A stretch of 63,839 bases of DNA, counting the filler, from Acidimicrobiia bacterium (lineage in GTDB: Bacteria > Actinomycetota > Acidimicrobiia > Spongiisociales > JAENVV01): assembly GCA_041577335.1 (NCBI GenBank). It is 3 parts of 3 records of this genome, joined end to end, with 100 filler letters (N's around TTAATTAATTAA, not from the genome) between each part and the next. Parts side by side here need not be neighbours in the genome. Positions count along the whole stretch, not along the records: positions 46,602 to 63,839 come from JBFGJH010000071.1; 2 more parts are not named here. The stretch is one strand, 5' to 3'. The translations under genes were made by a program, and so were the position numbers. This document shows, one piece after another, positions 48,591 through 60,821 of the stretch. How positions within the stretch are numbered: position 1 is the stretch's first letter; each line of letters opens with the position of its first letter. The notes under the pieces are model-generated. The model searched no databases. It had not been told where the DNA came from and worked only from the letters and a program-made list of their open reading frames with translations.

Positions 48591-49754
48591 ATGAGCAATC
48601 CCCACGCCGACCAGTTCCAGACCGTGCGGACATCCGTCAAGCGGTGGGAGTTGTCACCGTATCGGGAACGGTGGCAGTCGCCCGACGTGGTCTACTCGGT
48701 GTACGCCGATCGGTTGTCTCCGGTCACGCTGGGCGGCGACGCCCTCGCCGACTACTGGAAGCTGCGAAGCGGCGTGGTGCTCTACGACATCCCCGAGCGA
48801 CCCGTATCGATCAAGGGCCCCGACTCGGTGCGGCTGCTGGAGCGGGCGATGACCCGGCCGGTCGGTTCCATCCGGGTGGGGCGGGGCGTCTATGGGCTGG
48901 CCTGTTTGCCCGACGGCGGCATCCTTATGGACGGCGTGCTGTTCCGGCTGGCCGAGGACCATTTCTGGTACGTGCAGGCCGACGGCGACATCGAGAACTG
49001 GCTCATGGCCCTCGGCATCGACATGGAGGTCGAGGTCACCGACCCTGGCTCACGAGTGCTGCAGATCCAGGGCCCCCAGTCACACGAGTTCCTGGCGGCA
49101 GCCTCCGGAGCCCCGCTGCCCGACAACTTCTCCTGGTTTGCTGCGCAGTACTTCGATCTCGGTGGTCAGCGGCTGCTGGTGTCGAACTCGGGTTGGACCG
49201 GCGAGCTGGGGATCGAGGTGTATGGCCACACCGGACTCGATCATCTCCGGCTGTGGGACCACCTCATGGAAGTGGGAGACCAGTACGACATGACGATGGG
49301 CGCCGGAGACTCGATGGGCCCCCGCCGCGTCGAGGCCGGCATCCTCGACAACCGGACCGACTTCGACCGAACAATGACCCCGTTCGCCGCCGGGCTGGGT
49401 GGTTTCGTCAACTTCGAAAACCCCAACTTCGTCGGTCGGGCTGCCCTGGAGACGGCAGACCGCACCAAGCTCCTGTGGGGACTGACGTGTGCCACGGCCA
49501 TCCCCGGCGCCCGCGACGAGGTTCATGTCAACGGTCAACCGGTCGGCTGGATGACGATCGGTGAGTGGTCACCGACCCTCGAGACGGGCATCGGCTACGT
49601 CCGCTTCACAGGCCCCACCGACGGTGGATGGGAAGGCAAGACGGTGACCCTGGTCGATGGCGACGGCGCCGAGCACGCAGGAACCGTCGTGGCGCTGCCG
49701 TTCTTCGACCACGACAAGCTGCTGCCACGCGGCTTGGGTAATCCGCCCCGGTAG
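48591..49754 (+). CDS. Aminomethyltransferase family protein (GcvT/DmdA/LigM-like folate-dependent enzyme)
   Basis: GPDS..LL, GGILMDGVLFRL, LQIQGP, GWTGELGIEVY, RRVEAG, LPFFD; GAGGAG RBS. Confidence 0.88.
   Translation: MSNPHADQFQTVRTSVKRWELSPYRERWQSPDVVYSVYADRLSPVTLGGDALADYWKLRSGVVLYDIPERPVSIKGPDSVRLLERAMTRPVGSIRVGRGVYGLACLPDGGILMDGVLFRLAEDHFWYVQADGDIENWLMALGIDMEVEVTDPGSRVLQIQGPQSHEFLAAASGAPLPDNFSWFAAQYFDLGGQRLLVSNSGWTGELGIEVYGHTGLDHLRLWDHLMEVGDQYDMTMGAGDSMGPRRVEAGILDNRTDFDRTMTPFAAGLGGFVNFENPNFVGRAALETADRTKLLWGLTCATAIPGARDEVHVNGQPVGWMTIGEWSPTLETGIGYVRFTGPTDGGWEGKTVTLVDGDGAEHAGTVVALPFFDHDKLLPRGLGNPPR
49344..49735 (+). repeat. Long direct repeat, copy 1 (3' end of the aminomethyltransferase)
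   Basis: Closely matches 60439-60821. Confidence 0.92.
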
Positions 49755-49880: not shown

Positions 49881-51830
49881 ATGCAACCAGCGACAGCGAC
49901 GAGCTCCGAATGGCTCGGTGAACGCACCCGCGCTCAGATCCGCGCCGCCCTGGATGCGATCATCACAATCGACCAGGCGGGGATGGTGGTGGAGTGGAAT
50001 CCGTCCGCTGAACAGATCTTTGGCTACTCGAGTGAGGAAGCCATCGGCACCGAACTTGCCGAGTTGATCGTCCCGCACCGCCTGATGGACGCCCACCGCG
50101 CCGGGATGGCCCACTACTTTTCGACCGGCGAAGGGCCCGCTCTCGACCAACGGCTCGAACTCCCGGGCCGGCGCGCCGACGGCAGCGAGATCACGGTGGA
50201 ACTGACGATCACGGCCTTCGAAGCTGAGGGTCGGAAATGGTTCACTGGCTATGCCCGTGACATCAGCGAGCTGACGAGGATTCGCGAAGAGCTGATGCTC
50301 AGCGAGCAACGTTTTCGCGCCATCGTCGAGGGTTCCTCGGACATCATCACCATCTTGAATGCCGACGGCTCATGGCGATTCACGTCGGAGTCGGGTACCC
50401 GCATCACCGGTTACGAGAAGGGATTCGAACCCGAGGGAGGCATCTTGGCCCTCTTGCACCCCGACGACAGCGAACTGGCTGTCGATGCGCTGCAGAGCAT
50501 CATCTCGGGAGACAGGAGCCCTGGCGAGCCGGTCGAACTGCGAATCATTGGAAATGACGGCGCCGTGCATTGGTTTGAGACGACAGGCGTGAACATGCTG
50601 GACGATCCAGCGGTGGAGGGAGTCGTTCTGCACGCTCGGGATGTCACCGATCGAAGGGCGGCCGACGATGCGGTGCGCCTGAGAACCGGGCAGATGGCGG
50701 GGATCATGAACAACCTCGACGTCGGAGTTCTGGTCGAGGACGACGAGCGGCGGGTCGTCGCTGCCAATCAAGCCTTCGCGGATACGTTCGGGAGCGAAAT
50801 CCCGGCCGAGTCGATGACAGGGGCGGACTGTGTTGCGGCTATGCAGGCAGCGCGAATTCTCTTCAAGGACCCGGAGGGGTTCGTCGCAGGCGTGGAGATG
50901 AACGTGGCCGAGAAAAAGCCAGTGCGCAATCAGCTGCTGGCATTGACCGACGGCCGATTCCTCGAGCGGGATTACGTCCCGGTGACCGATCAGGGCCAGG
51001 TGAAAGGACACATCTGGCTGTACCGCGACGTCACCGAAGAGCTGGAGCTGACCCAACGTCGCGAGGAGATGCTCGAGCTCGAGCGGCATACGCGGCGCCA
51101 GGTCGAGGAGCAAAACGAAGCGCTCCGCGAACTCGACGAGCTTAAGACGCAGCTCGTGGCGACGGCATCGCATGAACTGCGCACCCCGCTGGCGTCGATT
51201 GTCTCATTTGCTGATCTCTTGGCGGACGGGCACGCCGGTGCGCATCCGCCCGAGGAGATGCGGTTCGTCGATGCGATCCAGCGCAACGCCGACCGGCTGC
51301 TTCATCTGGTCGACGACCTTTTGCTTCTCGCCCGCCTTGAGTCGAAGGCGGTTGCTCTGGTGTGCGAGTCGGTGGCGGTGAGTGATCTGCTTGCAGAGTT
51401 GGTCGAGAACGCCCGAGCGCGCGCCTCGGACCGATCGATTCCCATCGAGCTGCACAGCGACCGCACGGCGAGCGTCGAAGGCGACCGCTCCAAACTCACT
51501 CAGGTCTTTGACAATCTGATCTCGAACGCCGTGAAGTTCACACCCGACGGTGGGAAGGTGACGGTGGTGGTGGAACAGCAGCCGGACGCCGTCACAGTCG
51601 CGGTGAGCGATACCGGCATTGGGATCCCTTCCGAAGACCTCGACCGGTTGTTCGACCGGTTCTTCCGCGCCGACAACGCCCGCAAGAACCAGATACCTGG
51701 CACCGGGTTGGGACTCTCCGTCTCGCTGGGCCTCATCGAGCTGCATGGCGGCTCCCTCGCGGTGGAATCCGCCGAGAGAGCTGGGACCACCATGACCGTG
51801 ACCCTTCCGAAGAGGCAGGCCAATGTCTGA
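49881..51830 (+). CDS. Cytoplasmic triple-PAS sensor histidine kinase
   Basis: Three PAS repeats, SHELRTPL H-box, NLISNAVKF, DTGIG, GTGLGL; no TM segment. Confidence 0.93.
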   Translation: MQPATATSSEWLGERTRAQIRAALDAIITIDQAGMVVEWNPSAEQIFGYSSEEAIGTELAELIVPHRLMDAHRAGMAHYFSTGEGPALDQRLELPGRRADGSEITVELTITAFEAEGRKWFTGYARDISELTRIREELMLSEQRFRAIVEGSSDIITILNADGSWRFTSESGTRITGYEKGFEPEGGILALLHPDDSELAVDALQSIISGDRSPGEPVELRIIGNDGAVHWFETTGVNMLDDPAVEGVVLHARDVTDRRAADDAVRLRTGQMAGIMNNLDVGVLVEDDERRVVAANQAFADTFGSEIPAESMTGADCVAAMQAARILFKDPEGFVAGVEMNVAEKKPVRNQLLALTDGRFLERDYVPVTDQGQVKGHIWLYRDVTEELELTQRREEMLELERHTRRQVEEQNEALRELDELKTQLVATASHELRTPLASIVSFADLLADGHAGAHPPEEMRFVDAIQRNADRLLHLVDDLLLLARLESKAVALVCESVAVSDLLAELVENARARASDRSIPIELHSDRTASVEGDRSKLTQVFDNLISNAVKFTPDGGKVTVVVEQQPDAVTVAVSDTGIGIPSEDLDRLFDRFFRADNARKNQIPGTGLGLSVSLGLIELHGGSLAVESAERAGTTMTVTLPKRQANV

Positions 51831-52500
51831 TGCCAAGGTTCTCGTCATTGAAGATGAGCCGGATCTCGCCGATGCATTGGGCGTGGTGCTGAAGCGTGCC
51901 GGCTACGAGTCCATCCGGGCCGCCCAGGGCAAGGAAGGACTACGGCTCTTGCATGACCACCGTCCCGACATCGTCATCCTCGACGTCGGCCTTCCCGACC
52001 TCGACGGTTGGGAGGTTCTTGAGCGGATTCGTGACTTCACCGACACGCCGGTCGTGATGCTGACTGCTCGAGGCCTCGAACAGGACAAGGTGCGAGGGCT
52101 CGACTCGGGTGCCGACGATTATGTCACCAAGCCGTTCTCCAACGTCGAGTTGGTCTCCCGTATCAACGCCCTACTTCGCCGCTCCAGCGGGGGCGCCGAG
52201 GTCGAATCCAGCTTCCGGGCCGGAAACGTCGCTATTCGTTTCGACGCCCGGCTTGTGACCGTCGACGGTGACGAAGTCCGGCTGACACCACTCGAGTTTC
52301 GTTTGCTTGCCGCCCTGGCGCGACATCGAGGTCAGGTGTTGTCGGTCGATCAGTTGCTCGATTTGGCATGGAACGATCCCTTCGGGATCGCCCCGGAGCG
52401 GGTCAAGTTCACAGTTGCTCGCCTCCGAAAGAAGCTCGCCGAGCGCGACGCTGCTCCCATCGAGACCGTACGGGGATTCGGCTACCGCTTCGCCGGCTGA
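51823..52500 (+). CDS. OmpR/PhoB family response regulator
   Basis: IEDE, ILDVGLP, LTA, GADDYVTKPF, LTPLEF, IETVRGFGY. Confidence 0.95.
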   Translation: MSDAKVLVIEDEPDLADALGVVLKRAGYESIRAAQGKEGLRLLHDHRPDIVILDVGLPDLDGWEVLERIRDFTDTPVVMLTARGLEQDKVRGLDSGADDYVTKPFSNVELVSRINALLRRSSGGAEVESSFRAGNVAIRFDARLVTVDGDEVRLTPLEFRLLAALARHRGQVLSVDQLLDLAWNDPFGIAPERVKFTVARLRKKLAERDAAPIETVRGFGYRFAG

Positions 52501-52502
52501 TC

Positions 52503-52543
52503 TGCAACCGAACTGCAACCCGACGGGCAACGTCTGTGCAACC
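52503..52543 (+). promoter_or_regulatory. Four phased GCAAC direct repeats, putative OmpR-family binding site
   Basis: GCAAC at 52504, 52515, 52527, 52538 (spacing 11, 12, 11). Confidence 0.65.
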
Positions 52544-52584
52544 TGCGGTTCCGATGTTTCCTCATGCACATTGAGGAGCGGAAC

Positions 52585-53613
52585 ATGGAGAACTTGCATG
52601 GGGCACGGATCGTCCTCGTAGAGGACGACGAAGCCCAAGCCGAGTACGTGAGATACGTGCTCCAGGAGATGGCCGGCTGCGTCGTCGATCATCATGTCGA
52701 CCCCGAACGAGCTTTGGAAGCGTTGGCGCTTTCCCCGTGCGATGCGGTGATCACCGACATGATGTTGCCAGGCATGGACGGTCTCGAATTCATGCGGAGA
52801 CTCCAGCCGGCGAGGCCGGCGGTGCCCGTTATCGCCGTCACCGCCTTCGCCACGGTCGACATGGCCGTCGAGGCCGTTCAGGCACGGGCGGCTGGTTTTC
52901 TCCGGAAGCCCTTTTCTCCTGACGATCTGATGACGGCAGTCGGCGCCCAAATCGCCGAGTCACGCCGCCGGCGGCCCAACAATCGAGTTCTCGCGATCGG
53001 CGCCCACCCCGATGACATCGAGCTGGGGGTGGGGGCAACTCTCTTCCGGCACCGGTCCGCACAGGACGACATCACGATGCTCGTTCTCACGCAAGGCATG
53101 GAAGGTGGCGACTCAGGAGTGAGGGCCACCGAAGCTGAGGCGGCCGCCCGCAAGCTCGGCGCCACGCTCATCTTCGGGGATCTCGAGGACACGAGAATCA
53201 GCGAAGGACATCCCACTGTTTCGGTGATCGAGGACGCCATCGCCCAGGCGCGACCCACCCTTGTGTACGTACACAGCGACAACGACGTGCACCAGGATCA
53301 CCGGAACGCCCACCGCGCCACTTTGGTGGCGGCCCGTCGAGTGCCGGCTATCTATTGCTATCAGAGTCCCTCGGCCACCGTCGGTTTCTCGCCGACCCTC
53401 TTCGTCGGAGTCGATACCCACGTCAACCAGAAGCTCGATCTCATCGCCACCCACGATTCGCAGGCGAGTACACGGCCGTACATGGAACCAGCCCTCATCG
53501 ACGCCACTGCCCGCTACTGGGGTCGGTTCGCCGACAGCCGCTACGCCGAGCCATTCGAGGTTGTGCGGGAACGGGCCGTACGGGCGGGAGGAGCCGGCAA
53601 TGTGGCGGCTTGA
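52585..53613 (+). CDS. Response-regulator receiver domain fused to PIG-L/LmbE deacetylase
   Basis: REC: VEDD, TDMMLP, TA, KP; PIG-L: AHPDD, HQDH; GAGGAG RBS. Confidence 0.9.
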   Translation: MENLHGARIVLVEDDEAQAEYVRYVLQEMAGCVVDHHVDPERALEALALSPCDAVITDMMLPGMDGLEFMRRLQPARPAVPVIAVTAFATVDMAVEAVQARAAGFLRKPFSPDDLMTAVGAQIAESRRRRPNNRVLAIGAHPDDIELGVGATLFRHRSAQDDITMLVLTQGMEGGDSGVRATEAEAAARKLGATLIFGDLEDTRISEGHPTVSVIEDAIAQARPTLVYVHSDNDVHQDHRNAHRATLVAARRVPAIYCYQSPSATVGFSPTLFVGVDTHVNQKLDLIATHDSQASTRPYMEPALIDATARYWGRFADSRYAEPFEVVRERAVRAGGAGNVAA

Positions 53614-54613
53614 CGGCGTGCGACCCCGTGTCCTGGTCACCGGCATCGGCGGTCCGGCGGCTCAGGCGTTCATCGCCTCCTTCGCCCCGGGGACGGTCGA
53701 TTGGTTCGCCGCCGACATGGACCCGCTGATGCCCGGCTTCCAATTGTTTCCACCGGATCGGCGCGGGGTCCTTCCCCGAGGCGGCGACCAGAGCTTTGCC
53801 CGGGCGCTGCTCTCTCTTGCACTGACGGCCGGTGCTGATGTGGTTGTTCCGACCGTAGACAGCGAACTGCTCGCGGTCGCCCGCAGCCGGCGCCACTTCT
53901 CTCGCCAGGGCATCCATGTGCTGGCCGCCTCTGTGTCAACGCTCGACGTCTGCCTCGACAAACTACACCTCGTCGAGAAGCTGTCCGGTGTCGTCGACGT
54001 GCCGGTCACCCACCGATTCGACGAGTCATTCGACCCCGCGGGGCTCAAAGAACGGGTAGTCGTGAAGCCACGATCCGGGAGTGGTGGGCGAGGTGTCCAT
54101 GTCTTTGAAGCGGCGGCTGAGATCAGCGCCGACCTTCCACGGGACGGCTCCCTCATCGTGCAGGAGTTCCTGCCCGGCGCCGAGTATTCGATCGACGTGC
54201 TTGCCGGCAAGGCCGGACGGATCGTGGCTGCGGTGCCCAGGGAGAGGATCCGGGTGGACTCCGGCATCGCAGTTGTGGCCCGCTCGGTTCGCGACCAGCG
54301 GCTCATCGATTTCGGCACTGCGGTGGCGGAGGCCATCGGGTTGACCACGGCTGCCAACGTCCAAGCAAAGCTCCGCGAGGACGGAACTCCCGCACTGCTG
54401 GAAGTGAATCCCCGCTTTCCGGGCACGATGTCTCTCACCGTGGCCAGCGGCGTGAACATGCCGGAGCTGGCTCTCACGGACCTGCTTGGTGGTGTCATCC
54501 CCGAGCGAGCCGCGTTCCGTGAAACGGTGATGGTCCGCACGTGGGCCGACCACATTGTCGATCCTGCCTCCTATGGCAGAAGCGGCCTCGGGGCCTCGGA
54601 CCGGGTGGCATAG
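53600..54613 (+). CDS. ATP-grasp domain protein
   Basis: VLVTGIGG, PTVDSEL, CLDK, VKPRSGSGGRG, QEFLPG.EY, EVNPRF. Confidence 0.9.
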   Translation: MWRLDGVRPRVLVTGIGGPAAQAFIASFAPGTVDWFAADMDPLMPGFQLFPPDRRGVLPRGGDQSFARALLSLALTAGADVVVPTVDSELLAVARSRRHFSRQGIHVLAASVSTLDVCLDKLHLVEKLSGVVDVPVTHRFDESFDPAGLKERVVVKPRSGSGGRGVHVFEAAAEISADLPRDGSLIVQEFLPGAEYSIDVLAGKAGRIVAAVPRERIRVDSGIAVVARSVRDQRLIDFGTAVAEAIGLTTAANVQAKLREDGTPALLEVNPRFPGTMSLTVASGVNMPELALTDLLGGVIPERAAFRETVMVRTWADHIVDPASYGRSGLGASDRVA

Positions 54614-54615
54614 CT

Positions 54616-55326
54616 GTGCAGGACTTCCACACCCACACCACCTTCTCCGATGGATCCGACACGCCGGAGGCGATGATCCAGGCTGCTGTCGCTGCAGGCA
54701 TCACGACCCTGGGAATCTGCGACCACGTGCGTTCCAGCACGGACTGGGTGCCTCAATACGTCGAGACCATCCGCCGGCTCCGAGCCGACGCGCCCATCGA
54801 CGTGAGGTGCGGGGTCGAAGCGAAGATGCTCGACACCCACGGCAATCTCGATCTCCCCGAGAACCTCTTCGGCGTCGAATACGTGGCGATCGCCGATCAC
54901 CGGGTGCCCACGCCCTACGGTCCTGCGCTGCCCGAGCAGATCCGCCGCCGGATGGACGCGGGCGCCTTGGGCGAGATCGACGTGTTCGAGTTGATCGTCG
55001 AAGCCACGGCAGCGGCGGCGGCGGCGTCGCCGGCGCAGCCGATCATCGCCCATCTCTTCAGCATTCTTCCCAAGCTGGGCATGCGTGAGGACGACATACC
55101 ACTGAGCCTGGTCAACGTTCTGGTGCGCCGGCTCCGGCGGGCTCATGCATGGGTGGAGATCAACGAGAAATGGAAGTGTCCCGGCCGTGACATCGCCGAC
55201 CGGCTGGCCAGGGGCGGGGTGCAGCTCGTCGCCGGATCCGACAGCCATGCCGCCGCCGACCTCGGATGGTTGGCTTACGTGGACAGCACCGGTGACGATC
55301 TGATCACTCCCAACGTGGCGGCCTGA
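54616..55326 (+). CDS. PHP domain phosphoesterase
   Basis: DFHTHTTFSDG, CDH, GVE, ADH, AH, GSDSH. Confidence 0.9.
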   Translation: MQDFHTHTTFSDGSDTPEAMIQAAVAAGITTLGICDHVRSSTDWVPQYVETIRRLRADAPIDVRCGVEAKMLDTHGNLDLPENLFGVEYVAIADHRVPTPYGPALPEQIRRRMDAGALGEIDVFELIVEATAAAAAASPAQPIIAHLFSILPKLGMREDDIPLSLVNVLVRRLRRAHAWVEINEKWKCPGRDIADRLARGGVQLVAGSDSHAAADLGWLAYVDSTGDDLITPNVAA

Positions 55327-55330
55327 GATC

Positions 55331-56827
55331 GTGAGCGCACTCGAGATAGCCGAACTCGTCGGGAAGAACACTCTCGTGGTGCTCGTCCTGCTCGGAGCAC
55401 TGCCGCTCACTGCGGCGGTCTACCAGTATCTGTTGGTGGGGTTCCATTCTCGCCGGAACCACTATGACGAGGTGGCCCCGACCTTCCCCAACACGGCCAT
55501 CCTCATTCCGGCCTGGAACGAGGACGCCGTGATCGCCGCGTCGATCGACCGGCTCATCCAGCTCGAGTATCCCGCCGACCGCCTCCGCATCTACGTCGTC
55601 GACGACGGATCCACCGACCGAACTCCCGACGTGGTCCTCGCCAAGGCAGAAGAATTCCCCGGTCGAGTCTTCCATCTCCGTCGGGAGAATGGTGGCCAGG
55701 GCAAGGCCCACACGCTCAATCATGGGCTCGAGATCATCCTGTCCGACGACTGGATGGAGGCGCTCCTCATCATGGACGCCGACGTCATCTATGCCAGGGA
55801 CTCACTGCGCAAGATGACCCGCCACCTTGCCGACCCGACGGTCGGCGCCGTGACCGCTTACATCATGGAGGGCAGCGAGCCGGGAGGCTACATGACCCGG
55901 TTCATTGCCTACGAGTACATCACCGCCCAAGCGGGCGCCCGCCGCTCCCAGAACGTCCTCGGAGCCATGGCGTGCCTGGCCGGGGGCGCCCAGCTCCACT
56001 CCCGGGAGAACCTCGAAGCTCTCGGGGGTCGCATCGACACGTCGTCGCTGGCCGAGGACACATTCACCACCATCAATACCCAGCTCGGCGGCCGGAAATG
56101 TGTCTTTGAAGGCAACGCCATCGTCAAGGCAGAAGAACCCGACGCCATCGTGGGTCTGTGGAAGCAGCGCCTGCGCTGGGCTCGGGGCAACGTCCAAGTG
56201 AGCATTCGCTACAAGAGCCTGTGGTTCCGACCCAACGGCGAACACCGGCTGGGAAGCATCTCCTTCGGCATCTTCTGGTTCACGATCTTCCTCCTACCGG
56301 TGTTCATGATTCTGTCATCGGTCAGCCTGATCGTCCTCTTCTTCGTCGACTTCCCCCTGTCATGGGAGACGTTCAAGAAGCTCTGGATAATCAATGCCAT
56401 CTCGTTCATCTTCATCACCTCGTACTGCCTCATGATCGACACCGAGACCGCCAAACGAGCCTGGAAGGAAGCGGTGATCTTCCCCGGTGCCATCTCGGTG
56501 TTGATCATTCTCTACACGGTATTTCCTCGACTCTTCGGCGCAGCGGCGAGCGGCGCGCTCGACCTGCTCAACATCAACAACCCCGTCGTCGTCAAGTCGA
56601 TCATCTTTTTTGCCTATGTCTGGGTGGCGGCCTGCATGGGGGTGGCTTACCTCGGCAAGTTCTTCGAAGCCCACGGCCTGCCCCGACTGCTCAGCCGGCT
56701 CATGGTGTACATCGGCGGCTACGGGCCGCTGCTGTGCGCCGTCACCTTCGCCTCGTATGGCTACGAGCTGCGCGGGGCCGAGATGACGTGGGACAAAACC
56801 GTCAAGACCGGAAAGGTCGCGGCATGA
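55331..56827 (+). CDS. Processive GT2 glycosyltransferase (cellulose synthase/PgaC/IcaA-like), multi-TM
   Basis: PAWNE, DDGSTD, GKAH, DAD, AED, QRLRW; N- and C-terminal TM helices. Confidence 0.92.
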   Translation: MSALEIAELVGKNTLVVLVLLGALPLTAAVYQYLLVGFHSRRNHYDEVAPTFPNTAILIPAWNEDAVIAASIDRLIQLEYPADRLRIYVVDDGSTDRTPDVVLAKAEEFPGRVFHLRRENGGQGKAHTLNHGLEIILSDDWMEALLIMDADVIYARDSLRKMTRHLADPTVGAVTAYIMEGSEPGGYMTRFIAYEYITAQAGARRSQNVLGAMACLAGGAQLHSRENLEALGGRIDTSSLAEDTFTTINTQLGGRKCVFEGNAIVKAEEPDAIVGLWKQRLRWARGNVQVSIRYKSLWFRPNGEHRLGSISFGIFWFTIFLLPVFMILSSVSLIVLFFVDFPLSWETFKKLWIINAISFIFITSYCLMIDTETAKRAWKEAVIFPGAISVLIILYTVFPRLFGAAASGALDLLNINNPVVVKSIIFFAYVWVAACMGVAYLGKFFEAHGLPRLLSRLMVYIGGYGPLLCAVTFASYGYELRGAEMTWDKTVKTGKVAA

Positions 56828-56979
56828 GCGCCTTCTCCATCGACGACTACGTCCGCAGCGAATTCCAGCCTGAGCTCGACGCGGACCTGGCCGTCGAGCG
56901 GAAACTGTCGAGGCGATGCCTCTACGCCATTGCCGTCGTCGTTGCCGTGATCATCGCCCGCTCACTTTGGTTCGTCTGA
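56824..56979 (+). CDS. Small single-TM protein coupled to GT2 (51 aa)
   Basis: ATGA overlap with GT2 stop; MSAFSIDDY...CLYAIAVVVAVIIARSLWFV*. Confidence 0.7.
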   Translation: MSAFSIDDYVRSEFQPELDADLAVERKLSRRCLYAIAVVVAVIIARSLWFV

Positions 56980-56997
56980 TCAGCTCAAGGAGAAAAC

Positions 56998-57384
56998 ATG
57001 GAATACCGAATACCGATCATCCCCAGCGCCGTGGCCGTGGCGGCACCGGCCGACGACGCCGAACTGCTGGCGTCGATGGGTCACGAGCTGAGAACGCCGC
57101 TCAACGCCGTGATCGGACTGTCGGACCTCCTAGCCCGCCACGCATACGGCCCGCTGTCTGAAAAGCAGTCGGATTTCGTCAACCACATCAACAAGTCCGG
57201 CCGACAGCTGCTGAAGCTCATCGACGACATGCTTGATGCCACCAACTTCTGCCAAGGAGGCAACTCGCCCCACCTGCACCCGCTGCCGGGAGAGATCGGA
57301 GCTCCGGACATCGGTGCCACGGCCAGCCACCGAGAAGCAACAGACTCGGGCCTGCGACTCGACGATCTAGGTGGCTGCCCATGA
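56998..57384 (+). CDS. Stand-alone HisKA (DHp) domain protein
   Basis: AAGGAG RBS; MGHELRTPLNAVIGLSDLL...SGRQLLKLIDDMLD with no HATPase; stop overlaps next ATG. Confidence 0.75.
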   Translation: MEYRIPIIPSAVAVAAPADDAELLASMGHELRTPLNAVIGLSDLLARHAYGPLSEKQSDFVNHINKSGRQLLKLIDDMLDATNFCQGGNSPHLHPLPGEIGAPDIGATASHREATDSGLRLDDLGGCP

Positions 57385-58775
57385 GCAACGCCCTCGCCGT
57401 GGACCGTGTCCTCGTCGTCGACGACGATGAGTACGGCAGCCTGCCCGTCCGAGCCCTGCTCGAGGGATGGGGCGTCGAGGTCCGCTATGTAGGCGACGCC
57501 CGCCAGGTCTTGCGCGTCCTCGAGGAGGAGGACCTGCCAGACCTGATCATCAGTGATGTCATGATGCCCGGGCTCGACGGCTTCGCTCTCTGCGATCTCC
57601 TCCGTCGCAACGAGGCATGGCGGCATCTGCCTTTGCTCTTCGTCACGGCGCTCAACGATCGGTCGGCCAGGCTGAAGGCTCTCGACGCCGGCGGCGACGA
57701 CATCCTCAGCAAGCCCGTCGACGAGGCAGAGCTGATCGCCCGAGTGCGATCCCTCGGGCGGCTCAGCCGCTACCGGCTGATGCTCGAGGAGCGCGACCGG
57801 CTCGATCAGCTCATAGAAATCAACGGCGACGGCGTGCTCATCCTCGCCGCCGACGACACGGTCACCCGCGCCAATGCTGCGGCCGGCCAGCTCCTGGGAA
57901 TGCCCGAGGAGCTCCCTCCCACCTTCCCGTTGGTCGCCCACATCGAGACACGATTCTCGGTGGACGGCGACCTTCGTTCTCGGGCTCTCTTGGAGCTGGC
58001 GGCCCGGCGTGGGTCTGGGCGCCGGTTCCTCGAATGGAAGGCCCGGCGTGTATCGGGAGCCGATTCGTCGACGACGGTCGTGACCGTCCGTGACGTTACC
58101 GAGTCGGTGCTCCGCACCCGGGCGTCGGCGGCTCTGCTCGACACCATCAGCCACAAGTTCAACACACCACTGGCGGCGGTACAGGCAGGCGTGGAACTGC
58201 TGGGGGACTCTCCCCGGCTCACTGACGAGGACAGGGAGCTCCTCGATCTGGTCGATGGCGGAGCGGTACGCCTGAAGGCGTCTATCGACCGTGTGATCCA
58301 GTTCGTTGCGGCGGGATCGTCGGCGGCCATCAACCCCGTTGGCCTCGACCGAGCCTCGCTGGAGTGCGTCGTGGCTGAGCAGGCCGGTCCGGATGCGACG
58401 CTCGGCCGCTTCGACGCCGACGACGCCACCCAGGTCGATGGTCGGGTGCTGAGCCTGGCGGTGGAGGAGTTGGTGGCCAACGCCATGACGGCCGGTGCCG
58501 AGTCGATCACGGTCGATGTCGAAACGGCCGCTGAGGAGGTGATGGTCAGCGTGGTCGACGATGGAAGTGGCTTTCCTTCGAACGACGCTACCCGCATCTT
58601 CGAATCGTTCTATCAGGTCGACCCCACCGGCGAACACGACGGTATGGGAATCGGCCTGGCTCTGGTGAGGTACGCAGTGACGGAAGCCGGGGGCCGCTGC
58701 GGAGCTACGTCTCCGGTGGGTGAGCCAACCCGCGTGTGGTTCACACTTCCCGCCCTCGGCGACTCGCTGCGATAG
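57381..58775 (+). CDS. Hybrid REC-PAS-histidine kinase with degenerate H-box
   Basis: REC (VDDD, SDVMMP, TA, KP), PAS-like middle, SHKFNTPL, ELVANA, DDGSGF, GMGIGL. Confidence 0.87.
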   Translation: MSNALAVDRVLVVDDDEYGSLPVRALLEGWGVEVRYVGDARQVLRVLEEEDLPDLIISDVMMPGLDGFALCDLLRRNEAWRHLPLLFVTALNDRSARLKALDAGGDDILSKPVDEAELIARVRSLGRLSRYRLMLEERDRLDQLIEINGDGVLILAADDTVTRANAAAGQLLGMPEELPPTFPLVAHIETRFSVDGDLRSRALLELAARRGSGRRFLEWKARRVSGADSSTTVVTVRDVTESVLRTRASAALLDTISHKFNTPLAAVQAGVELLGDSPRLTDEDRELLDLVDGGAVRLKASIDRVIQFVAAGSSAAINPVGLDRASLECVVAEQAGPDATLGRFDADDATQVDGRVLSLAVEELVANAMTAGAESITVDVETAAEEVMVSVVDDGSGFPSNDATRIFESFYQVDPTGEHDGMGIGLALVRYAVTEAGGRCGATSPVGEPTRVWFTLPALGDSLR

Positions 58776-59065: not shown

Positions 59066-60205
59066 GTGCGCAGGACTGGGTTTCTTTTTGCTGTGGTAGG
59101 GATTTTGCTGATCGGAGTCCTCCCTGCTGGAGCGGTTGGCGTCGTTCATGAGGTCGAGTTCGATGTTGAGTCCCACACTGGCGGCAGTGGTACGTTCTAC
59201 ATGAGCGGATACGGGGTTGGAGACGACACCGCAGCCTTTGGCGAATTCGAGTACTACCACCCGCACCAGGATGGTGTTTCCAATCCCTTCGAGACCCGCC
59301 TGCGGATTCACGACCTGAAATGCATGGTTGTGGTCCCGAGCGATAACACCAGCCATGACACCGACTACAACGTCTTGGTGATCGGGCGTCTCGAAGTCTT
59401 GGCGGACGAGGGTGGCAATTACACGTCGGCAAGGTGGGGCTCTCTCATCTATGCGCCCGACGAGTGGCGATTCGGAGGGTCTCGTCCGCTCGGTGCCGGG
59501 GTTCACGAATCCGAGCCTTCGTGCAATCTGGAGGAGTTCTTCTATTGGACCAATCCGCCGGGCCAGTGGCACACGTCCGGTTTTTTCGATGCCGGATTTG
59601 TAACGGTGAACGAGATCGAGCCGCTCTACGACGGACCACCGAAGAAGGTGAGTTTCTCGGAGACCTACCAGCTACCCGGGGACCGTCCCCTGGTGGAGGA
59701 CCAGGGCTGGTTGAACATCGGCTGCGGTGGAGGCGAGTTCGAATGGCCGACCGAGCCGGGTGTCTACGAGACGCCTGGCGTCCTCTACGAGATGGACTCG
59801 GGGAAGCTGGATGCGAGCTGGAAAGCCAAGTATGTAGGAGAAGGTACCGATGGCCGCTGGCTTTATGAAATGACCCAAGACTTCGACTTGAAGAAGGCAG
59901 TCTTCGAGTCGGGCACTAATTGGCTGTACTACGAGGCCGAGGACGACTGGTACTTCGAGTGGATCGGGTCGGGCGACTACTTCGATGTTGAGTCGGCCGT
60001 CGACTTCGATCGAGTGGTGGTCGGCGTCGTCAACCCCTACGAGCCGATTGGGCCGGGGAATGTGGAGCCGGTCAACGGTGACATCAACACCTCCTTCTTT
60101 CTCTACGACGACGCCACCGGCGAGCTCGCCGACTGGATCACCATCGATGGCACCTTCACCGACGGGGAGTTCGCGGGAACCCAGGAGGGAACCTGTAACG
60201 GCTGA
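59066..60205 (+). CDS. Secreted acidic hypothetical protein
   Basis: AGGAGG RBS, signal peptide (AGA), 379 aa, Asp/Glu/aromatic rich. Confidence 0.75.
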   Translation: MRRTGFLFAVVGILLIGVLPAGAVGVVHEVEFDVESHTGGSGTFYMSGYGVGDDTAAFGEFEYYHPHQDGVSNPFETRLRIHDLKCMVVVPSDNTSHDTDYNVLVIGRLEVLADEGGNYTSARWGSLIYAPDEWRFGGSRPLGAGVHESEPSCNLEEFFYWTNPPGQWHTSGFFDAGFVTVNEIEPLYDGPPKKVSFSETYQLPGDRPLVEDQGWLNIGCGGGEFEWPTEPGVYETPGVLYEMDSGKLDASWKAKYVGEGTDGRWLYEMTQDFDLKKAVFESGTNWLYYEAEDDWYFEWIGSGDYFDVESAVDFDRVVVGVVNPYEPIGPGNVEPVNGDINTSFFLYDDATGELADWITIDGTFTDGEFAGTQEGTCNG

Positions 60206-60438: not shown

Positions 60439-60821
60439 CTCGACAACCGGACCGACTTCGACCGAACGATGACCCCGTTCGCCGCCGGGCTGGGTGGTTT
60501 CGTCAGCTTCGAAAACCCCAACTTCGTCGGTCCAGGCTGCTGTGAGGCCTGACGTGTGCCACGGCCATCCCCGGCGCCCGCGACGAGGTTCATGTCAACG
60601 GTCAACCGGTCGGCTGGATGACGATCGGTGAGTGGTCACCCACCACCCTGGAGACGGGCATCGGCTACGTCCGCTTCGCAGCCCCCACCGACGGTGGCTG
60701 GGAGGGCAAGACGGTCACCCTGGTCGACAAAGAGGGCGCCGAGCACGCTGGAACCGTCGTCGCGCTGCCGTTCTTCGACAAAGAGAAGCGCCTGCCGAGA
60801 GGCATGTCACTCGACGACTAG
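60439..60821 (+). pseudogene. Duplicated 3' fragment of the aminomethyltransferase (direct repeat copy 2)
   Basis: Matches 49344-49735 with a 28-nt deletion, TGG>TGA, a 3-nt insertion and a diverged tail. Confidence 0.9.

Follow-up and report, generated by a model that had tools for sequence, protein, structure and literature searches.

A synthase gene accompanied by genes for BcsB-like and tetratricopeptide repeat (TPR)/barrel proteins is arranged like a polymer secretion system (PMC8892547). PgaC has no PilZ domain yet binds cyclic di-GMP (c-di-GMP) together with PgaD (PMC8892547), and staphylococcal Ica is already independent of c-di-GMP (PMC7112194). In the Campylobacter jejuni capsule pathway, ligation of a phosphorylated amine is followed by dephosphorylation (PMC12409886), while the Wbp/Vim pathway proceeds by deacetylation and then re-acylation (PMC7468200). 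Which enzymes attach N-glyceroyl and similar groups to sugars has been described as unknown (PMC5378307). Here, we analyzed a locus from an Acidimicrobiia bacterium (assembly GCA_041577335.1) within a stretch of 63,839 nucleotides, filler included, which is referred to as the window. Nine co-oriented open reading frames (ORFs), designated A to I, lie on its plus strand at 49881–58775, on a single contig (JBFGJH010000071.1). The conserved unit among them consists of the five genes C to G (52585–56979), which encode a receiver–PIG-L deacetylase, an ATP-grasp ligase, a PHP phosphoesterase, a family 2 glycosyltransferase (GT2) synthase, and a small membrane partner. This cassette is real, widespread, and apparently uncharacterized.

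Co-occurrence and distribution of the five-gene unit

The loci fetched via the REC-PIG-L protein, and hence anchored on one gene, numbered 37, of which 32 contained the ligase, 28 the synthase, 26 the PHP gene, 24 all three, and 5 none. Genomes were also sampled blind. Of 400 others from the phylum, the same two contained close orthologs of both the ligase (43–44%) and the synthase (53–61%), and in these the two genes adjoin PIG-L and PHP. In a set of 141 Microbacteriaceae genomes, 16 contained the synthase and the same 16 the ligase, and these also carry the 16 best PIG-L matches; in one of these carriers, the synthase and ligase lie 1.9 Mb apart. The synthase was further found in 3 of 121 Legionellaceae genomes and in 6 of 301 genomes of the phylum Myxococcota (centres included), and the non-centre neighbourhoods of these two groups contained the ligase and PIG-L in 7 of 7 cases. 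The same two genes were present in all 12 loci that were not anchored on PIG-L. Thirty-two loci, including 20 that were PIG-L-anchored, extended at least 4.5 kb to either side of the synthase, and here the ligase was present in 32, PIG-L in 31 (the missing one sits just outside), PHP in 29, and H and I in none.

The cassette recurs in Legionellaceae, Lysobacterales, and Myxococcota beside actinobacteria, and thus spans three phyla; gene order and strand vary by lineage, and the core genes remain adjacent. No synthase was found in 150 further genomes from the window's order, among them one of the same genus. Across 30 loci, the distance matrices of the four core enzymes correlated with rho values of 0.68–0.87, and those of the core and the nearest kinase with 0.50–0.63; since related carriers are not independent, these mirror-tree values are only suggestive. 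Because the five genes recur together across many genomes, their grouping is more than chance, and the deacetylase–ligase–phosphatase trio is very likely tied functionally to the synthase. A preliminary description of the locus, made from the sequence alone, had named neighbourhood conservation across Actinomycetota as a check, and the shared 16 of 141 and 2 of 400 genomes bear this out within the phylum. The nine-gene system that it proposed has to be reduced to the core, as H and I are missing from the full-length loci, an ortholog of I is present in a genome lacking the synthase (G949), and H evolves loosely.

Several variations on the cassette were observed. The synthase gene was relocated elsewhere in some Microbacteriaceae (two Leifsonia genomes; L036, L041, L155, L156, G1044), with the small partner left in the operon, and tandem synthase copies, whole or partial, precede a single small partner in others (L030, L120, L124, L125, L135). 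In Myxococcota, the cassette is accompanied by a conserved protein of 113–120 aa that belongs to no known family (L150:5876-6220, L151:10182-10544, L152, L153, L056, L117). Atlas searches with G and with the 114-aa Myxococcota protein gave leads that were all below 0.9.

The coordinates of the ORFs are listed in Table 1. Domains were called with Pfam, and enzyme-level families were assigned with NCBIfam equivalogs and their curated cut-offs. The ORF calls and Pfam confirmed the nine co-oriented, mostly overlapping or abutting genes and their domains as previously described, with overlaps of 8, 14, 4, and 4 nt and gaps of 84, 2, 4, and 18 nt at the junctions. The best starts were 52585 for C, 53600 for D, 54616 for E, and 56824 for G; the alternative start of C at 52564 is without a Shine–Dalgarno-like site. 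As had also been noted, Pfam found no GGDEF or PilZ domain in any of the nine ORFs. Hydropathy profiles agree with the expected cytoplasmic location of the tailoring enzymes: five membrane segments were found in F and one in G, whereas D, E, and the PIG-L domain had none. The nine-gene stretch is not an assembly artefact, because near-identical long contigs from four public DNA runs (three studies) cover 29–30 of its 30 bins, none of them spanning the whole. The nine genes lie between two copies of a direct repeat, which share blocks of 86%–98% identity and also contain indels; this arrangement suggests that about 11 kb was inserted. A predicted secreted protein of 379 aa with no Pfam match is encoded within the repeat-bounded segment (window 59066-60205). 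The promoter scan of the cluster returned 0 sites, terminators were at chance level, and the plasmid collection searched with the cluster gave no match.

Table 1. Positions of the ORFs and of the flanking repeat copies in the window
Feature	Position	Strand	Status	Domain or family matches
A, PAS3 histidine kinase, cytoplasmic	49881..51830	+	accessory	Pfam: three PAS + HisKA + HATPase
B, OmpR-family regulator	51823..52500	+	accessory	Pfam: REC + Trans_reg_C
C, receiver–PIG-L/LmbE N-deacetylase	52585..53613	+	core	Pfam: REC + PIG-L
D, ATP-grasp ligase, PRK12767/ATPgrasp_Ter group, CarB- and PylC-like	53600..54613	+	core	Pfam: ATPgrasp_Ter/ATP-grasp_3
E, PHP phosphoesterase, metal-ligand set complete	54616..55326	+	core	Pfam: PHP
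F, membrane-embedded processive-type GT2 synthase, no PilZ	55331..56827	+	core	Pfam: GT2
G, 51-aa single-helix membrane partner of synthase	56824..56979	+	core	no family match
H, DHp-only ORF	56998..57384	+	outside conserved system	Pfam: HisKA only
I, REC-PAS kinase	57381..58775	+	outside conserved system	Pfam: REC + PAS + HisKA + HATPase
gcvT-like 3′ end, left copy of ~400-bp direct repeat	49344..49736	+		
gcvT-like 3′ end, right copy of ~400-bp direct repeat	60439..60806	+		

Enzymes of the cassette and the membrane synthase

The trio carries full catalytic sets in PIG-L, ligase, and PHP. The metal site of C (H141, D144, and H239, the HPDD and HxDH ligands) was present in 54 of 54 copies, and C scored 86.5 bits against PF02585 (cut-off 28.2), its nearest solved relative being BshB1. 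D retains the conserved ATP- and metal-binding residues K121, K156, E195, N253, Q255, E268, N270, and R272, and its model, with a predicted local distance difference test (pLDDT) score of 93.5, matched best the uncharacterized fold 2pn1 (TM 0.80), followed by biotin carboxylase, CarB, and amino-acid ligases. By fold and residues, D is thus predicted to be an ATP-grasp amide ligase. The metal-ligand set of E is complete. No NCBIfam equivalog reached its cut-off with C, D, E, or F.

The phosphatase position is occupied by different folds. A histidine phosphatase replaces PHP in three Legionellaceae loci (His_Phos_1 by Pfam in L059, and like ORFs in L148 and L149), a HAD protein replaces it in a sister actinobacterial cassette and in an archaeon, and in the wider ligase family, 8 of another 19 loci have a HAD gene adjoining the ligase. 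A low-molecular-weight tyrosine phosphatase (L147) and PAP2 proteins (L086, L135) were considered as further possible substitutes but, as single cases, were not counted. Because these unrelated phosphatase folds are exchanged for one another, the enzyme points to the removal of phosphate from a small molecule. Of 4 diderm genomes tested, 3 have a second glmS copy next to the cassette; a UDP-GlcNAc 2-epimerase (WecB) occurs in 10 sister clusters and a Glycos_transf_4 GlcNAc-1-P transferase inside an archaeal PHP–ligase–PIG-L set. These neighbours point to amino sugars as the substrate context of the trio. That the same trio accompanies unlike transferases fits a pathway that makes a donor.

Related arrangements were also recorded. 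The sister cassette (L026, L065-L069, L071, L074, L075, L097) combines a different GT2 with ATP-grasp, UDP-GlcNAc 2-epimerase, and HAD genes; its PIG-L stands alone in 9 of 10 cases, and exosortase-like and HEAT proteins occur in some. Of the two archaeal versions of the trio (L073:6311-10778 and L080:7446-13519), one has a GlcNAc-1-P transferase and a GT4, the other a GT2 and a membrane protein. In L086:7816-9639, PIG-L is fused to TPR repeats and not to a receiver, and adjoins an ATP-grasp gene and a long GT2 gene.

The synthase F contains the motifs DDGS, DAD, AED, QRLRW, and W.KT.K, and DD, DAD, ED, QRxRW, and W.KT.K were conserved in at least 95% of 46 orthologs. Its best NCBIfam match was PgaC/IcaA, followed by NodC. 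The fused-form ortholog of Legionella rowbothamii was modelled with a pLDDT of 90.7 and a predicted template-modelling score (pTM) of 0.90, its last helix comprising residues 501–537. This model matched the archaeal mannosyltransferase PcManGT (Z 28.9, root-mean-square deviation [rmsd] 3.1, 342 aligned residues), which was the top match of F in both sequence and structure, as well as BcsA (Z 25.0, rmsd 3.3, 368 aligned) and hyaluronan synthase (HAS; Z 23.4); over all three folds, the rmsd was 3.1–3.4, with 342–383 aligned residues and 13%–21% identity.

A small hydrophobic ORF such as G follows 39 of 62 synthase ends, 38 of them with a 4-nt overlap, and the remaining 23 comprise fusions, first tandem copies, contig ends, and longer overlaps. 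In the five Legionellaceae loci, the G-like sequence is the C-terminal helix of the synthase itself. This helix scored 5.5–18.1 bits on the profile of free G proteins, compared with at most 2.4 for 20 shuffles each; the profile score of the window's own G is inflated by near-identical relatives in the profile. The small proteins of Myxococcota matched the G profile weakly, scoring above all shuffles in 7 of 9 cases, mostly by little. Co-folding of F with G gave 0.91, compared with 0.00 for the best of three controls, with a contact agreement between runs of at least 92% and a partner pLDDT of at least 87; of 78 solved pairs, 51 attained the co-folding mark, as did 2 of 108 mismatched ones, and halves of a split gene pass it easily. 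These predictions support the binding of G to F. G had no Pfam or NCBIfam match, PgaD/IcaD included, and no longer fused synthase forms (873–2490 aa) were found at E ≤ 1e-60, which is weak evidence.

In diderm loci, BcsB matches by Pfam were found in 5 and TPR proteins in 5 (L051, L056, L059, L147, L154), the C-terminal part of the latter appearing barrel-like from the sequence pattern. Since export genes of the BcsB-like and TPR/barrel types are added in diderm carriers, the cassette probably makes a secreted polymer, with F very probably as its synthase. The preliminary description had left the product as a glycan or a glycolipid; the former stands as probable in this sense, and the export partners make a glycolipid unlikely.

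Probable phosphorylation and independence of c-di-GMP in some carriers

Both REC and PIG-L domains were present in 119 of the 120 listed homologs of C. In 54 copies, the receiver sites were conserved as D15 in 50, D58 in 53, T/S86 in 52, and K108 in 52. With its acidic pocket, phospho-Asp, Thr/Ser, and Lys, the receiver has the sequence features of a phospho-acceptor, and we are fairly confident that it would be phosphorylated. A kinase or receiver gene lies near the core in most loci, its type differing by lineage, with membrane kinases in Microbacteriaceae, cytoplasmic PAS kinases (33%–35% identity) in three loci, and Hpt hybrids in Myxococcota. At this locus, A is likely the phospho-donor. 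In the closest relative, A is 59% identical (over the part present) and B 63%, and the cluster stops at G, with neither H nor I. Homologs of B with at least 45% identity adjoin the core in just 3 related loci, and transcriptional control through B is proposed from adjacency alone. Of the dual control at the enzyme and transcription levels that was originally suggested, the enzyme level thus retains an intact receiver on C, whereas the transcriptional level depends on the position of A and B, which recur only in the close relative and a few loci.

Compared with the nearest relative, H is 81% identical, its neighbours being 88%–98% identical, and its codon differences comprise 24 amino-acid-changing and 18 silent ones, compared with 8 and 17 in I. 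H is thus probably a loosely constrained remnant of a kinase. I and its ortholog (L159:1123-2511) carry Lys directly after the phospho-His, a position at which the residue is usually acidic, and I may therefore work as a phosphatase or a relay and not as an autokinase. The supply of DHp by H in trans to I was considered but is not supported, as the G949 ortholog of I keeps the Lys with no H match nearby and H is relaxed.

Further signalling genes were noted around the cassette. In Myxococcota, an H-NOX gene or a FIST/NosP-type gene precedes the cassette-side kinase (L157:12066-12611, L151:1885-3069), hinting at gas or haem sensing upstream of the cassette in this group. The PAS domain of the L151 kinase resembles the third PAS domain of A. 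A more distant second clade of REC-PIG-L proteins (L054, L062, L047, and 12 Microbacteriaceae genomes) stands beside receivers and membrane kinases, without ligase or synthase.

The GGDEF domain was absent from 8 of 10 carrier genomes, including one that is 100% complete (G204), in a search that was positive in 8 of 14 controls. The system therefore needs no c-di-GMP in at least some carriers, and the cassette is likely switched by protein phosphorylation instead. The window's own genome (G000) has three GGDEF domains, so that c-di-GMP may be bound there. Independence of c-di-GMP had first been argued from the lack of PilZ; this argument is incomplete, because PgaC senses c-di-GMP with PgaD in spite of lacking PilZ (PMC8892547), and the conclusion now stands on the carrier genomes. 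The accompanying statement that known synthase systems (Bcs, Pga, Pel) are controlled by c-di-GMP has to be qualified in view of staphylococcal Ica (PMC7112194).

Proposed mechanism, alternatives, and known systems

The best reading of the cassette, to which we give an even chance, keeps the sequence of steps in the preliminary description, namely deacetylation, ligation of a phosphorylated acid, dephosphorylation, and polymerization. A neighbouring kinase would phosphorylate D58 of the receiver and thereby switch the deacetylase C, which would remove the acetyl group from a cytoplasmic GlcNAc precursor, most likely UDP-GlcNAc. D would then acylate the resulting amine with a small acid that bears a phosphate, E would take the phosphate off the amide product, and F with G would polymerize and secrete a polymer of amino sugars with swapped N-acyl groups. 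The more general claim that the trio makes a building block is slightly favoured. In this scheme, we infer the substrates, the order of the steps, the sign of the phospho-control, and the cognate kinase, and the fold and the partner binding are predicted; the candidate acids, phosphoglycerate, phosphoglycolate, and phosphoserine, are guesses from metabolism.

Several observations weigh against this mechanism. Twelve further Microbacteriaceae genomes have only a more distant PIG-L, without ligase or synthase, and five of the 37 PIG-L-anchored loci contain no ligase, synthase, or PHP; because such paralogs are found, the deacetylase has a role outside this pathway. The receiver is degenerate in L154 and L060, and a phosphatase gene was not seen in L042, L049, L051, and L154. 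The carriers are related, so that the counts are not independent and overstate the number of events. The fold match of the modelled synthase sets the synthase fold and not the donor sugar, because HAS, BcsA, and the mannosyltransferase score alike. In Legionellaceae, a gene of glycoside hydrolase family 81 (GH81; a β-1,3-glucanase family) overlaps the synthase in 3 of 5 loci and BcsB, which is cellulose-type, lies upstream in 2, and both suit a glucan. In the C. jejuni precedent, the phosphate is on the amine and not on the acid, and the enzymes act on the growing chain (PMC12409886).

A lesser possibility is that the trio forms a signalling or priming loop. In this reading, D and E make a small N-acyl amino sugar as an activator or primer of the synthase, and C, under the control of its receiver, destroys it in the way that a phosphodiesterase degrades c-di-GMP. 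The PIG-L enzyme would be the regulated member, being fused to REC here and to TPR in L086, and REC-PIG-L paralogs stand alone with kinases; the 8 of 10 carriers without GGDEF fit a messenger other than c-di-GMP, the trio travels with several unrelated GT2 clades, the GH81 neighbours hint at a backbone with no need of an amino sugar, and free GlcNAc priming of HAS appears in PDB titles. A messenger is harder to reconcile with the presence of the trio next to a nonprocessive GT4 and a GlcNAc-1-P transferase and within ordinary surface-glycan clusters that include aminotransferases, with the extra glmS, which implies bulk demand, and with the lack of a regulatory domain in most trio copies outside this clade. 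A full circuit of this kind, in which an amino-sugar messenger or primer acts at the synthase–partner interface, replaces c-di-GMP where bacteria are unable to produce it, and links gas-sensing or other kinases (compare the H-NOX and FIST/NosP neighbours in Myxococcota) directly to matrix synthesis, is slightly more doubtful still.

It is improbable that F makes a curdlan-like β-1,3-glucan from UDP-glucose, with the trio providing an occasional decoration or anchor. The GH81 and BcsB neighbours and the fold match to BcsA given above would suit such a product, but two of the Legionellaceae loci lack GH81, it was seen in no other group, all three copies carry Gln at what we take to be the position of the catalytic Glu in the family motif, the best NCBIfam matches of F are PgaC/IcaA and then NodC, and there is no conserved transferase able to export a decoration. 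The enzyme logic of transfer, dephosphorylation, deacetylation, and ligation is that of MshA, MshA2, MshB, and MshC, and F might accordingly be a nonprocessive enzyme for a small glycoside or glycolipid made by mycothiol-like steps, a reading in keeping with BshB1 as the nearest solved PIG-L and PcManGT (Z 28.9) as the top match of F. We consider it highly improbable in view of QRLRW, the W.KT.K gating-loop-like motif, a complete membrane domain alignable with HAS and BcsA across about 370 residues, and the BcsB-like and TPR/barrel-type genes added in diderms. A chance or decaying cluster with no shared function is hardly credible and for the core largely refuted, given the identical presence pattern in 141 genomes, the conserved catalytic residues, and the linkage in three phyla despite rearrangement; it does hold for H and I. 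The patchy distribution, with 0 of 150 other genomes of the order, the flanking repeat that suggests insertion, and the relaxed H were the points in its favour.

If the favoured mechanism is true, the cassette would represent a further class of synthase-dependent polysaccharide secretion, in which a building block (or activator) is edited in the cytoplasm before polymerization and the flux is set by a response regulator with a sugar deacetylase output, two features that were not found in the systems compared. It would also give a function to the large uncharacterized PRK12767 ATP-grasp family and to a trio found repeatedly in glycan clusters of bacteria and archaea. About one in nine of the sampled Microbacteriaceae genomes carries the cassette, including cultivated strains without GGDEF genes, making it a direct test of matrix synthesis control without c-di-GMP. 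No characterized pathway with this gene set had been known to the preliminary description, and our literature searches, with most subscription papers outside their reach, likewise found no paper describing the REC-PIG-L fusion or the gene combination. The available main text of a survey of synthase operons makes no mention of Microbacterium, Legionella, or myxobacteria (PMC7112194).

Among relatives of the single enzymes, BshB1 and MshB share the HPDD and HxDH metal site with C, BshB1 being its nearest solved relative and best NCBIfam enzyme match. The bacillithiol and mycothiol pathways follow a deacetylate-then-ligate logic. C differs in reaching 82 bits against TIGR04001 of BshB1 (cut-off 182.5), in its fusion to a receiver, and in its association with an ATP-grasp ligase and a membrane synthase. 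CheB and PleD are response regulators that combine a receiver with an enzymatic output; C resembles them in this design and differs in that its output is a sugar N-deacetylase. The Ter-associated ATP-grasp cluster is found beside ter genes, a phosphoribosyltransferase, and a TIM-barrel enzyme. D matches PF15632, but such neighbours are not among the conserved families of the cassette.

The C. jejuni HS:2 capsule pathway, with Cj1438C and Cj1435, is similar in that an ATP-dependent ligase forms an amide with a phosphorylated partner, after which a dedicated phosphatase acts (PMC12409886). It differs in joining a phospho-amine to a uronic acid on a chain made by nonprocessive glycosyltransferases, in having no deacetylase in the portion available, and in using another phosphatase and export route (PMC12409886). 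In the Wbp/Vim pathway, VimE and VimA are proposed to remove the N-acetyl group of an amino sugar and re-acylate it (PMC7468200). Here, VimE belongs to carbohydrate esterase family 4 (CE4) and VimA is acetyltransferase/FemAB-like, the product is a linking sugar for cargo of the type IX secretion system and not a synthase polymer, and the available portion describes no phospho-control (PMC7468200).

The poly-N-acetylglucosamine (PNAG) systems, PgaCD of E. coli and IcaAD of staphylococci, share with the cassette a GT2 without PilZ and a small inner-membrane partner, have in diderms a TPR-containing outer-membrane export protein, and provide the best NCBIfam match. However, F reaches only 122 bits against PgaC/IcaA (cut-off 422.3), and G has a single helix and no match to the PgaD/IcaD family. 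In place of a deacetylase such as PgaB or IcaB, the cassette has a cytoplasmic PIG-L, ligase, and phosphatase, and no conserved CE4-type deacetylase gene was found among its neighbour families. The cassette also differs from the PNAG systems in that many carriers lack GGDEF and that diderms have a BcsB-like scaffold. With the cellulose system BcsABZC, it shares the synthase fold and, in Legionellaceae, the BcsB-like, TPR/barrel, and glycoside hydrolase roles in the same order. In contrast to BcsA, F lacks a C-terminal PilZ, scores 71 against 699 bits for CelA, and is about 16%–18% identical; the hydrolase, where present, is GH81 rather than GH8, and the actinobacterial form has no BcsB, neither BcsB nor a GH8/GH81 hydrolase being present in this window. 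The cassette matches synthase-dependent secretion systems in its predicted D,D,D,QxxRW membrane GT2, its inner-membrane partner, and its diderm TPR scaffold, and departs from them in the activation by c-di-GMP, as 8 of the 10 carriers lack GGDEF. It works like a synthase-dependent secretion system but, on the features tested, belongs to neither the Pga/Ica nor the Bcs systems.

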